43,026 bases of DNA, from contig JBMFOP010000010.1 in NCBI GenBank assembly GCA_049969675.1, forward strand, positions 1 to 43,026, in the 5' to 3' direction. The position numbers are program-made. This DNA is from Myxococcota bacterium (GTDB taxonomy: Bacteria; Myxococcota; SpSt-1050). Below, piece by piece: positions 18,001 to 21,000 of this stretch (position 1 is the stretch's first letter; every line of letters begins with the position of its first letter).

Positions 18001-21000
18001 TGGAAGGATACAGAACCTTTATTAAAAGATATCAAATTTTTAATGGGGGCTGACCCAACAGGTAAAATAGCCCGGCTACTGGGTGTTTATGATGAAGAGA
18101 CAGGGCTCGCAAGGAGAGGAACATTTATCTTTGACCCTGATGGAAGACTTGTAAGTGTTGAAATCTCTTATGACAATGTGGGTAGAAATGCTGATGAATT
18201 GCTCAGAAAGGTTAAAGCCCATATTTATCTCTCAAAGCATCCAGATGAGGCCTGCCCGGCTAAATGGAGAGAGGGGGAAAAGACATTGAAACCCTCTGAG
18301 GAGATTGTGGGAAAGGTCGGCTATGTCTTAAAATAAGAGAATTTTGCAGGATATTATATAACCTGAATATATTAAAATATATAAGTAAAAGTATTGCATA
18401 AAAATAGTAATCTGAGTCGGAAATAATTTAAGTTATCTTTGTTCCTTAAAGTCCGTTTGAAATATTAAACATTGGTTTGAAAAAATTATTGTTAAGCTGT
18501 AAGATTTTCTTAGAAAATTTTGAATCCTAAAATAGAGAGCGGACTTAAAGGCGATTGACATTATTTTCATTTTAAGTTAATAGACTATATCGGAGATGGA
18601 GTCCTCCGTAAAACTGCCTGTCAATATGGCTGATGACTCCTGCTAAAATTTTAAGCAGGAGGTTTTTTATGCTTTCCTCTAACAGTAGTGAGAATGACAA
18701 AGCCCTGAATAAGATTATTGAGATATCAGAAAATCTTGGGATTGTATTTATTGAGAGGGATTGTAAAGAGGTTGTAGATAGATTAATGGGAGGTAGATTC
18801 AATATAGTTTTTCTGGGGCAATTTAAGCGCGGAAAATCTACATTAATAAATGCCTTCTTAGGCAGGGATATTCTCCCGTACGGTGTTGTACCTGTCACCG
18901 CGATTGTCTCTGTGATTAGATATGGTGAGGTTGAGTGTTGCCTGGTAAAGATGCAGGATGGGACAGAGAACGAGATTGGCTTTGATGAGATTTATCTATA
19001 TGCAACGCAGAAAGAGAATCCAGATAATAAGAAAGGTGTTGAATATATTGAGATTAGATTGAGGAATGATTATCTAAAAAGAGGTCTCTTTCTTGTAGAT
19101 ACCCCTGGTATCAGTTCTATATCTGAATCAAATACAATGGTTACAAAGGGTTTTCTTCAGAATATTGATACAGCAGTAATTGTTCTGGGAGTTGACCCCC
19201 CAATTTCCTACGACGAATTTGAGGTGATAAGAGAGATTAAAAAGAGAATTAAGGAGATTATCTTTGTTATCAATAAGGTGGATAAAGAACCTGTAGAGGA
19301 TATTGAGGCTATCAGAAAATTCACTACGGATATCTTGAAGAAGGAATTTAATCTTGAAAATCCTGTAATATTTTGTGTGAGCGCAAAAGAGAGATTTGAA
19401 GGTAGAAACTCTTATGACTGGAATAATTTTGTGCATAAAATAGATGAGATGCTGCTAAATAAGAGAGCCATAATCTCGGATAGTTATAAGAACGCAATTG
19501 ATAGGTTAACAAATCAATTGAAAGATGAGATTGATAGATATATTCAGGTTTTGAAAGAGCCAATTGAGAAATCAAGAGAGAAGGTAGTTTTATTAAACGA
19601 ATTTAAAAAAGAGGCAGATATCTTTATTAGAGAACTTGGATATAGATTTCAATCAGAGCAGGATAGAATATCTCAATTAATAGACCTTGCTCAGAAAAAA
19701 TTTCTTGATGAAAAGAAGGATGATATAAATAATGAATTTGAATCAGCATTTGATAGACTCTTAAATGAGCAGGTAAACAGCAACGGTTCATATTACAATG
19801 AAATACATAAGATTGCAGAAAAATATGTAAATCAGTGCATAGAGAGAATTTCAGGAGATGTTATTAGATATTATTCAGAATTTTCCAGAAGATATGCCGA
19901 GGAGATAAATAGACTTGAGAGTAAAATAAAAAGCATTCTAAATAGTGAGTTGAGTGTTGATGATTCTCCCAATATAAATATGTATGAAAGGAGTGAATTC
20001 TATTTCCATCATTTTATGAGATATACATCCTCTTCACCTCTTAAATTTCTTATTAATATATTTTTACCCAAAAGACATAGAATCAGAGTAATGAAGGGTG
20101 AACTTAAGGAGTATCTGGACTGGTTAATTTATGCAAATTGTTCAAGATATAATGGTGATATCAATCAGAGAATAATTGAAAGCCGCAGGAGGATAGAGGC
20201 AGATTTTAAGAGGAAGATTGATGAATTAATTGGGCGTGTAAATAATGCTGTCATCTATGCCGATAGATTTGCAAAAGAGGGGGAGAGTAGAATTAAAGGT
20301 GAGATATATAAATTATTGAGCTATAAAAGTCAGATAGAAGAGATCAGGTGTTTTCAAACTCAAGTCTGAGAAGAAGTTTCCTATAATTTAAAAAATCATT
20401 GCCCGGATTCAGCTTAATTTGAGGACTGTGGGTTTTATTGCCTGAATCCGGGCAATGGAGAGGATAATCTAAATATCAATTATGGGAAGATTCCCCTTTC
20501 CTGGTAAACCTTCTCAAGTCGTTTGAGGGCTACAATATATGCGGCTGTTCTCCAGTCTGTATTAAATTCTTTTGCAGTTTCTCTAACCCTTCTATATGCC
20601 GGGACAATCTTCTTTTTTAGTTTGCTGTCAACTTCTTCCAATTCCCAATATTCTGACCTCTTATTCTGTAACCATTCAAAGTAGCTTACAACTACTCCGC
20701 CAGCATTGCAAAGTACATCAGGGATAAAATCTATTCCTCTCTTTGCCAGAATAATGTCTCCTTCAGGAGTAGTGGGACCATTTGCACCTTCTGCAATCAA
20801 TTTGACATTGATTTTTGGAGCTGTCTCGTCTGTTATCTGATTTTCAAGAGCGGCTGGAATAAAGATATCTGCTTTTGTGGTGATAAATGTATCAAAGTCA
20901 ATTGCGTCTGCTTTGGGGTAACCTCTTACACCACCATTTTTCTTAACATAGGCAGCAAGCTCTTCAGGATCAATACCTTCTTTATTAATTATTGCACCTG

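Follow-up and report, generated by a model that had tools for sequence, protein, structure and literature searches.

Our analysis supports the view that a family of dynamin-like GTPases belongs to the bacterial fluoride regulon, in which it is widely conserved and seems not to have been described before. In the window, the 43,026-nucleotide stretch of Myxococcota DNA that we analysed, an intact dynamin gene directly follows a fluoride riboswitch. Likewise, of 137 mutually related loci drawn from four samples of relatives, 113 have such a riboswitch upstream, a stronger association than the survey's finding had first stated. A literature search that did not cover the original riboswitch gene lists found no paper linking the fluoride riboswitch to dynamins, and the words 'dynamin' and 'GTP' are absent from the main text of a 2024 review (PMC11139923) and of a paper on the Enterobacter cloacae FRM operon (PMC5533749). 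The fluoride response of bacteria probably gains a membrane-maintenance protein here, and a large membrane GTPase family would represent a new effector class in fluoride resistance. Fluoride toxicity limits organofluorine degradation (PMC11139923), and resistance beyond export is a practical question in fluoride biology.

A probable one-gene fluoride regulon

The genome (G000; 99.91% complete, 188 contigs) contains a single RF01734 match above the cut-off, aligned over the full length of the model (positions 1-64); the next match scores 13 bits, in line with the claim that this is the sole fluoride riboswitch of the genome. An ORF finder placed the dynamin start at ATG 18633, which was rejected as it lies inside the aptamer. 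The ATG at 18669 is preceded by AGGAGG, yields 566 residues and leaves the 20 nt between riboswitch and intact gene that had been reported (Table 1).

Table 1 Features of the riboswitch leader, the dynamin gene and its downstream flank.
Feature	Position	Strand	Evidence
TTGACA, possible -35 box of leader promoter	18555..18560	+	weak
Fluoride riboswitch aptamer RF01734	18583..18649	+	52.5 bits, E 7e-12, gathering score 34
Riboswitch P1, GGAG/CUCC	18592-18595/18604-18607	+	covariance-model alignment
Riboswitch pseudoknot, GGAGTC/GACTCC	18598-18603 with 18635-18640	+	complementarity by reading sequence
Riboswitch P2, 3 bp	18616-18618/18628-18630	+	covariance-model alignment
OFF-state hairpin (predicted), 8 bp and 9-nt loop	18637..18661	+	MFE and centroid structure
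Shine-Dalgarno AGGAGG	18657-18662	+	sequence; 6 nt before ATG 18669
T6 tract	18663-18668	+	sequence; candidate terminator part
Bacterial dynamin-like GTPase, 566 aa	18669..20369	+	Pfam Dynamin_N 90.6 bits; AlphaFold2; Foldseek
Trunk tip, residues 438-468, candidate lipid-binding paddle	19980..20072	+	hydrophobicity, conservation
16-bp perfect inverted repeat	20397..20457	.	fold -31 kcal/mol, single copy in genome

Both the MFE and the centroid fold of the leader contain a hairpin with the arms CTCCTGCT and AGCAGGAG (18637-18644 paired with 18654-18661), which shares bases with the pseudoknot's 3' strand and takes in most of the Shine-Dalgarno sequence. The 101-mer leader is no more stable than its shuffles (z -1.1), and the terminator scan missed the hairpin because of its 9-nt loop. 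Both arms are kept in all five close relatives, with loops that vary in length and sequence, while the U6 tract occurs in G000 and is absent from four relatives. The element had been described as a terminator and Shine-Dalgarno-sequestering hairpin in one; sequestration was borne out, but the terminator U-tract did not hold up as a general trait. The predicted conserved switch type is therefore translational, by a hairpin that sequesters the Shine-Dalgarno sequence, and in G000 only, the U6 tract could make this hairpin an intrinsic terminator. Blocking the pseudoknot strand in equilibrium folding, in a model without pseudoknots or co-transcriptional folding, did not release the G000 Shine-Dalgarno sequence, which took other, weaker pairing partners; its unpaired probability went from 0.15 to 0.18. 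The possible -35 box stands at the matching place in three of five close relatives; a sigma-70 scan left it uncalled, with no passing -10 box at 16-18 nt, and gave promoter matches not above shuffles.

Judging from this anatomy and from the behaviour of the riboswitch class, we consider it highly probable that the leader exerts fluoride-switched OFF/ON control over the dynamin. In the absence of fluoride, pairing of the aptamer's 3' strand with the Shine-Dalgarno region would block translation, and in G000 the U6 tract may additionally terminate transcription. Once fluoride accumulates in the cytoplasm, binding of Mg2+-fluoride would lock the pseudoknot and exclude the hairpin, allowing the GTPase to be made. 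Known RF01734 regulons, e.g. the Enterobacter cloacae FRM operon ppaC-uspA-eno-gpmA-crcB-orf5249, employ the same riboswitch class with the same ON logic (PMC5533749); in contrast to that operon, the riboswitch of G000 has a single target, the dynamin-like GTPase, and no exporter was found.

The CRCB and Voltage_CLC profiles gave no match in G000 at E<=10, and HMMs built from CrcB and ClC proteins of relatives' fluoride islands found no exporter either, which upholds the earlier statement that the genome has no CrcB or ClC. A single weak match of the ClC HMM was dismissed, as by sequence it resembles IMP dehydrogenase. Searches of G000 for a DUF190 protein, an island-type antiporter, the islands' AAA protein, a second dynamin and the helical domain c8/c9 (see below) also found none. 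The G000 unit is a one-gene fluoride regulon in which no exporter, DUF190 protein or partner dynamin was found, and the protein therefore probably acts alone. With one switch, one gene and no exporter found, G000 is the simplest test case, and since the fluoride riboswitch provides an exact trigger for a bacterial dynamin, its function can be tested with a cheap inducer.

The dynamin gene is flanked by genes for a peroxiredoxin and a convergent glutamate dehydrogenase; the inverted repeat between the dynamin and glutamate dehydrogenase genes likely marks, by its position, the end of the transcription unit. Within the genus, the riboswitch directly precedes a full dynamin gene in G000, G002 and G003, and in G001 it is kept along with an internally deleted, frame-broken remnant, confirming a pairing described as three full genes and one remnant.

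Riboswitch association across dynamin lineages

We counted a riboswitch as upstream when it lay on the same strand within 8 kb. This was the case for 14 of 18 full-length loci in a set of 401 phylum genomes, 27 of 31 loci of a phylum sample around G112, 8 of 9 loci of a sample around G103 and 64 of 79 GTDB loci (the best 80 of at least 575 loci, mostly Acidobacteriota), where the riboswitch stands at a median distance of 2.5 kb and within 500 nt in just 11. The earlier worry that 64 of 79 loci lacked a riboswitch was thus due to the 500-nt flank on which it was based. A regular-expression search for the riboswitch missed many matches. Among the 137 loci, 24 have no riboswitch upstream, some despite ample flank; the riboswitch-less loci G006, G144 and G149 nest among riboswitch-bearing ones. 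The sole control for the association is the genome-wide background, by which an RF01734 match falls within 8 kb of the dynamin by chance in about 0.4% per genome. Lower-scoring dynamins were rejected as a negative control, since in the phylum sample around G112 a riboswitch accompanies 17 of 20 of them too. By hand comparison, 23 of 28 genomes with one listed above-cut-off RF01734 match have that match no more than 8 kb from the dynamin.

The association is spread over several dynamin lineages and is not confined to the one clade for which it had been proposed. Clustering the family at 50% identity gives at least 150 clusters with scores above 550 bits. A metagenome scan with a single protein returned one locus, a viral scan one partial locus and plasmids three partial matches. 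Of 95 loci, 35 have DUF190 immediately upstream of the dynamin, 19 the riboswitch and 10 an AAA-type ATPase; gene order is reshuffled among loci, yet the link between riboswitch and dynamin is kept. Only 17 of the 401 phylum genomes carry the gene, and with so patchy a distribution there is no general need for it.

The relatives mostly lie in classical fluoride islands with CrcB, DUF190, enolase, Na+/H+ antiporter, Usp and pyrophosphatase, and these islands share with the listed regulon members crcB, CLC-F, enolase, pyrophosphatase, Usp, Na+/H+ antiporter, MutS-like and hydrogenase-4-like genes. In the 79 GTDB loci (best 80 of at least 575), we found DUF190, the commonest upstream neighbour, in 49, CrcB in 46, an AAA-type protein of 250 aa in 50, the antiporter in 22 and a second dynamin in 24. 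The AAA-type protein adjoins the dynamin in 29 of 95 loci and enolase does so in 11 of 95. In locus L023, riboswitch, CLC-F, enolase and dynamin stand in a row. Locus L048 belongs to a bacterium in culture, Acidicapsa dinghuensis.

Such neighbourhoods would suit an accessory factor that recruits, assembles or regulates an island transporter (Fluc, CLC-F or the Na+/H+ antiporter), possibly in concert with DUF190, a P-II-like protein; the counts for CrcB, DUF190 and the antiporter and the gene order of L023 speak for it. However, in G000 the gene stays directly under the riboswitch although searches found neither CrcB nor ClC, DUF190 or an island-type antiporter, 7 of the 17 carriers in the phylum lack CrcB, and the dynamin accompanies Fluc in some loci and CLC-F, of unrelated fold, in another. 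We therefore regard this role as unlikely.

The dynamin might instead substitute for an exporter, removing or sequestering fluoride by, e.g., vesicle shedding or metal-fluoride binding, as its position as sole riboswitch target in a genome without CrcB or ClC found would suggest; G002, G174 and G179 lack both as well. This idea of a replacement exporter did not survive comparison with the relatives. CrcB shares the locus in 46 of the 79 loci (best 80 of at least 575), and many loci place the dynamin on one transcript with exporters. CrcB occurs in just 196 of the 401 phylum genomes, against 10 of the 17 carriers, so there is no anticorrelation. Moreover, G004 has no CrcB, no ClC and no dynamin gene, and the dynamin lacks a transmembrane segment, making a substitute exporter very unlikely. 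Membership of the exporter classes themselves (Fluc, CLC-F, FEX) was rejected for want of a transmembrane-grade segment and in view of the dynamin fold.

Fold of the GTPase and a candidate lipid-binding tip

The protein matches PF00350 (Dynamin_N) well above the cut-off of 27 bits. G1-G4 are intact, with motifs at residues 50, 77, 144 and 202; G1 (GQFKRGKS, residue 50), G3 (DTPG, residue 144) and G4 (NKVD, residue 202) were located as reported before. The catalytic motifs are mostly kept in 148 representatives, with GQFKRGKS present in 131 and DTPG in 147. The AlphaFold2 model (pLDDT 90, pTM 0.83) predicts N-terminal helices, a G domain (about residues 40-263), a helical neck and trunk closed by N- and C-terminal helices, and a C-terminal return helix. 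A Foldseek search gave BDLP1 as the top match beside IniA and Cj-DLP2, with full-length matches to IniA and BDLP1; VIA-align superposed the model on IniA with a Z of 24.4 over 481 residues (rmsd 10.5).

Nostoc BDLP1 (PDB 2j68/2j69), Bacillus DynA, E. coli LeoA (Eleos) and CrfC have in common a Dynamin_N G domain and a helical stalk. Identity with DynA (NF052648, 74.3 against a cut-off of 1600 bits) and with CrfC (NF007368, 24.4 against 1146 bits) was rejected. IniA of Mycobacterium smegmatis (PDB 6j72, PMC6715688) has the same size and full-length architecture, without N-terminal extension or transmembrane helix, and is also stress-induced. It differs in its structural identity of only 15% and in its induction by cell-wall drugs in iniBAC with IniC, whereas the G000 protein has no partner. 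The best sequence match (E 4e-22) is Cj-DLP2 of the Campylobacter jejuni DLP1/DLP2 pair (PDB 5owv, PMC6104087); with Cj-DLP1, the model aligns from residue 116 onward only.

The protein had been called soluble and free of transmembrane segments. The latter is correct, as the top 19-residue Kyte-Doolittle mean is 1.45 and lies within the G domain, but 'soluble' is too strong in view of the tip of the trunk, which is hydrophobic and conserved. Aromatic and amphipathic, with flanking basic residues, it contains across 58 homologues the most hydrophobic and aromatic 11-mers of the stalk, none of them at transmembrane hydropathy. Four close relatives are 65-77% identical in the tip, 61-70% in the G domain and 49-58% elsewhere in the stalk. 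The tip has no sequence alignment to known paddles, and where it is aromatic, the lipid loop of IniA, likewise at the trunk tip, relies on basic residues. Lacking a transmembrane segment and carrying this conserved tip, the dynamin is probably a peripheral membrane protein, and the tip may be what binds lipid.

One reading makes the protein an anti-phage or general envelope-defence dynamin of the LeoA/Eleos or DynA kind, with fluoride as a proxy cue or the gene as a hitchhiker in a stress island. It draws on a PADLOC match to LeoA (68 bits, residues 137-424) and on a report that DynA limits phage spread. Yet the LeoA match is partial, and with no LeoB or LeoC beside the gene, which adjoins peroxiredoxin and glutamate dehydrogenase genes, membership in Eleos (LeoABC) was rejected; hitchhiking is hard to reconcile with the dedicated riboswitches that immediately precede the gene across many lineages. 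We give such a defence role hardly any credence.

A possible role in membrane repair and the question of partners

For the function of the dynamin, we propose fluoride-induced membrane repair or remodelling, and consider the case for it evenly balanced. HF that enters the cell makes the cytoplasm more acidic and reduces the proton-motive force (PMC11139923). Under this weak-acid stress, a dynamin of the IniA/Cj-DLP2 type would attach to the inner membrane through the hydrophobic tip of its trunk, and its GTP-driven assembly would stabilise, reseal or excise damaged membrane, limiting proton/HF leak and lysis. It would serve as an accessory arm beside exporters and pH-homeostasis genes where these are present, usually with a second dynamin, and could persist without any of them, as in G000. 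In favour of this, the conserved hydrophobic tip sits where Cj-DLP2 and IniA bind lipid (PMC6104087, PMC6715688), and island neighbours serve pH and membrane, namely the Na+/H+ antiporter and, in locus L025, a cyclopropane fatty acid synthase-like gene. The decay of the dynamin gene in G001, its patchy distribution and the failure of the tip to align with known paddles count against it.

Alternatively, the GTPase may itself be poisoned by fluoride through a GDP-metal-fluoride trap, with the riboswitch making more of it, as for enolase and pyrophosphatase. This would follow known fluoride-regulon logic (PMC11139923, PMC5533749), and GDP-AlF4 is a standard transition-state mimic on dynamins (PMC6104087, PMC6715688). 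Compensation fits housekeeping enzymes, however, while this gene is confined to few genomes of the phylum, is mostly fluoride-controlled rather than a second copy of a constitutive gene, and is without another dynamin in G000; we consider it improbable.

A role away from the membrane, in which the dynamin is an island NTPase that together with the AAA-type ATPase and a MutS-domain-V pair reactivates or remodels fluoride-inhibited enzymes, e.g. enolase, is quite improbable in our judgement. The AAA-type protein and enolase are frequent and adjacent as given above, the MutS-like pair has its best score, below the cut-off, to the reactivase ATPase KamC, and CrfC is cited as a dynamin unlike the paired membrane types (PMC6104087). 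But adjacency is expected within an island anyway, the AAA protein is absent from G000, and the neck and trunk are complete with a conserved hydrophobic tip.

A broader form of the membrane-repair proposal, which we hold to be doubtful, takes the short dynamins, the long ones, which carry an additional helical domain, and a type whose tail is rich in Cys and His as an ancestrally fluoride-dedicated, exporter-independent membrane-remodelling arm that in this genus would be the main inducible defence, protective alone. At its boldest, metal fluoride trapped with GDP at the active site would make the protein assemble on the membrane, so that it would respond to fluoride both directly and by way of its riboswitch.

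Most bacterial dynamins need a heterotypic partner (PMC6104087). Because G000 has neither a second dynamin nor c8/c9, its lone dynamin could be weakly active. The paired heterotypic operons Cj-DLP1/2 and IniA/IniC hold a second dynamin alongside, in contrast to G000. The Cj-DLP1/DLP2 pair has the short-plus-long layout of many relatives, in which the long member is a paralogous 700-aa dynamin with an extra N-terminal helical domain (c8/c9); G000 has neither partner. To our knowledge, the Campylobacter pair has no fluoride link. In the relatives, the second dynamin is often riboswitch-led as well, the 700-aa type having its own riboswitch match (at least 24 bits) within 350 nt in 21 of 27 cases. 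The c8/c9 domain also occurs stand-alone or, once, fused to the short type (P0181). A complex prediction for the short dynamin and the stand-alone helical domain of locus L073 gave a score of 0.01 (mark 0.32). The ESM Atlas named the 250-aa neighbour AAA-type only and gave the helical domain no name. Finally, the islands hold more uncharacterised riboswitch-led genes, namely those for the AAA-type ATPase, the helical domain and a DUF6062-like protein.

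The riboswitch and its unit

In G000, the genome under study, a single RF01734 (fluoride riboswitch; gathering score 34 bits) match lies above the cut-off genome-wide. It precedes the 566-aa frame of a dynamin-like GTPase, which bears out the survey's finding that the only fluoride riboswitch of this genome stands before such a gene. P1, the 3-bp P2 and both pseudoknot strands (GGAGTC and GACTCC) of the aptamer are intact. The RNA belongs to a known riboswitch class, and judging from this class, fluoride very probably switches expression on. Since the convergent glutamate dehydrogenase gene stands behind an inverted repeat and the peroxiredoxin gene upstream, the riboswitch unit comprises one gene. 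The peroxiredoxin gene, outside riboswitch control, has the same place and strand in G001 and G003 of the window's genus. Further window genes in the table are two glutamate dehydrogenase-type genes, flanking a regulator pair, and secreted-looking genes.

Features of the window (plain positions) and of related loci (L numbers)
Feature	Position	Strand	Remark
Secreted-looking genes	9911-15807		adjoin the 838-aa protein; translation only
838-aa protein	11718-14234	-	signal-peptide-like start, repeated T/S/D-rich segments; translation only
Peroxiredoxin gene, 5' neighbour	17737-18336	+	upstream of riboswitch
Fluoride riboswitch RF01734, full-length match	18583-18649	+	52.5 bits
Dynamin-like GTPase, 566 aa	18669-20369	+	ATG 6 nt after AGGAGG
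Glutamate dehydrogenase gene, convergent, 3' neighbour of dynamin	20480-21772	-	behind 16-bp inverted repeat
Histidine kinase and sigma-54-type response regulator	22256-25345	-	translation only
Second glutamate dehydrogenase-type gene	25578-26933	+	translation only
Helical domain	L073:5756-6268	+
Helical domain	L084:10425-10850	+
Third island dynamin type	L025:2754-4454	-
Third island dynamin type	L037:12650-14347	-
Third island dynamin type	L164:6902-8527	+
250-aa AAA-type ATPase	L029:9708-10454	+
Tandem MutS-domain-V ATPase pair	L024:523-3584	-
Riboswitch and the dynamin pseudogene behind it, contig G001:C71	L134:8025-8610	-	riboswitch 59 bits

Both hairpin arms, CTCCTGC and GCAGGAG, are retained in G000 to G003 and in a metagenome locus (57% protein identity). 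The loops between them vary in length and sequence, and among these five leaders a U-tract follows the hairpin in G000 only. Thus, what is conserved is a device that occludes the ribosome-binding site, and G000 may use termination as well; of the terminator/SD-sequestering hairpin proposed earlier, the sequestration holds in all five leaders and the terminator, if it forms, in G000 alone. Sixteen other direct leaders were folded; a hairpin held the aptamer 3' strand in most of them too, and several carried U-tracts. When the leader was refolded with the pseudoknot strand blocked, in an equilibrium model that represents neither the pseudoknot nor co-transcriptional folding, the ribosome-binding site took up other, weaker pairings, its unpaired probability in G000 moving from 0.15 to 0.18.

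Co-occurrence of riboswitch and dynamin

A GTDB scan yielded at least 575 relatives of the dynamin, of which the best 80 were taken and one duplicate dropped. With flanks of up to 8 kb, 64 of these 79 loci had an upstream same-strand riboswitch scoring 34 bits or more, no farther than 350 nt away in 9; by a lenient test all 64 riboswitches head a same-strand run, at a median distance of 2.5 kb. Our own covariance model was built from 27 hits, which match it by construction; Rfam's model, employed as an independent check, gave above-cut-off matches in 75 of the 79 genomes. Thirty genomes had a single RF01734 match, 28 of them above the cut-off, and hand comparison placed 23 of these 28 inside the dynamin locus, for a chance expectation of ~0.4% per genome (17.6 kb of about 5 Mb).

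Three further samples, not ranked by similarity, gave the same picture. In the window's phylum, 17 of 401 genomes held 18 full-length loci, 14 with a riboswitch upstream (9 within 350 nt). Around G112 (Verrucomicrobiia; loci in 32 of 301 genomes, seed left out), a riboswitch was present at 10 of 11 loci in the high-scoring group and at 17 of 20 in the lower-scoring one, as it was at 8 of 9 around G103 (Gemmatimonadaceae; loci in 10 of 251 genomes). Over all four samples, a riboswitch lay upstream in 113 of 137 loci. Several of those lacking it lie at contig ends; others, e.g. L040, L067, L070, L079 and L181, have full flanks. Four more distant phylum loci (G006, G007, G144, G149) showed none, two of them with a 1.5-kb flank. 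The loci are related, not independent; gene order nevertheless differs widely. The pairing is real and far beyond chance, and a phage or general defence dynamin is a most improbable reading beside it.

In G-domain trees the window's genus forms its own long branch within the short type (the 566-aa GTPase and its relatives). Every major branch except the G007 pair has riboswitch-led members, deep nodes being weakly supported, so the association is older or wider than one clade. The link had been assigned to one widely conserved clade; its wide conservation stands and the limit to one clade falls. A literature search, to which the original riboswitch gene lists with a possible passing mention of a GTPase did not belong, found no such link. 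The pairing is apparently undescribed so far and adds to the known fluoride regulon a new kind of effector, of inferred mechanism. In each of five Acidobacteriota genomes (G054, G055, G057, G058, G071), 14 to 22 RF01734 matches reach E<=0.001, many of them in clusters, a sign of very large fluoride regulons.

Architecture and possible role of the GTPase

The protein belongs to the bacterial dynamin-like family (Pfam Dynamin_N, 90.6 bits; G motifs intact), in none of its named groups. Its predicted structure (pLDDT 90) matches BDLP1, IniA and Cj-DLP2; the alignment to IniA spans 481 residues (Z 24.4, rmsd 10.5). The trunk tip, residues 438-468, contains the stalk's most hydrophobic and aromatic windows across 58 homologues, of transmembrane grade in none; at 65-77% identity between close relatives, it is conserved to the same degree as the G domain. 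Lipid is bound through FVLF at the trunk tip of Cj-DLP2 (PMC6104087) and through the tip loop of IniA, which severs membranes and has a proposed role in keeping the plasma membrane intact (PMC6715688). The modelled structure suggests membrane association of the 566-aa protein as well.

Entering as HF, fluoride makes the cytoplasm more acidic and reduces the proton-motive force (PMC11139923). Our best reading, at about an even chance, is fluoride-induced membrane repair or remodelling by the dynamin. That its induction compensates for poisoning of the GTPase itself by fluoride is unlikely, and that it reactivates enzymes about as unlikely.

Fluoride islands, exporters and partner dynamins

Among the 79 best-scoring loci, CrcB (Fluc) occurs in 46, DUF190 in 49, a 250-aa AAA-type ATPase in 50, a Na+/H+ antiporter in 22, enolase in 21, Usp in 16, pyrophosphatase in 9, hydrogenase-4-like subunits in 7 to 12 and MutS-domain genes in 8; nine have neither riboswitch nor core gene. 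L023 reads riboswitch, CLC-F, enolase, dynamin. PMC2864571, PMC11139923 and PMC5533749 list these island genes as fluoride-regulon members.

In the same set, 24 loci encode a 700-aa dynamin; of its 27 copies, 21 stand within 350 nt of a riboswitch match of their own (>=24 bits). The helical domain at its N-terminus exists as a stand-alone protein too (c8 and c9, whose homology HHalign puts at 98.8%), and P0181 is the one case of its fusion to the short type; 54 of the 79 loci have the helical domain or the long dynamin. This 140-170-aa domain, of no known family, often comes first behind the riboswitch. As a rule, members of the bacterial family act in pairs (PMC6104087). G000 is the pared-down case, and its lone copy counts against any obligatory tie to Fluc, DUF190 or a second dynamin; that the GTPase is a transporter accessory is rather unlikely.

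CRCB and Voltage_CLC gave no G000 match at E<=10 (controls positive in 11/14 and 13/14 genomes). Island-derived HMMs for CrcB, DUF190, antiporter, Usp, pyrophosphatase, DUF6062-like protein and helical domain found nothing there, and AAA-type and ClC profiles weak matches only. The sole Na+/H+ exchanger match is a fragment at the end of contig C137, missed by the island-type antiporter profile. The reported absence of CrcB and ClC thereby holds, within the limits of an assembly in 188 contigs. CrcB is missing throughout the genus, in all of its four genomes; G003 encodes a ClC that lacks the CLC-F signatures, which the L023 protein does show, and G002 carries a further riboswitch, which precedes an antiporter of the island type. 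Such absence is ordinary, as CrcB occurs in 196 of 401 phylum genomes and 10 of 17 with short-type dynamin; a GTPase substituting as exporter is very unlikely.

The intact riboswitch in G001, its only RF01734 match, precedes a dynamin pseudogene that has lost the G domain. A third island dynamin type has a Cys/His-rich tail resembling, by eye and one weak HMM match, a stand-alone DUF6062-like gene; a member of its branch lies on a Lichenicola plasmid, back to back with riboswitch-crcB. The 250-aa ATPase, a P-loop protein of no family above cut-off with its own riboswitch in L051, L073 and L082, is a second uncharacterised regulon member; no orthologue was found in G000. The best NCBIfam match of the tandem MutS-domain-V pair is the KamC reactivase, below cut-off, a hint that the pair may reactivate enzymes instead of repairing DNA.
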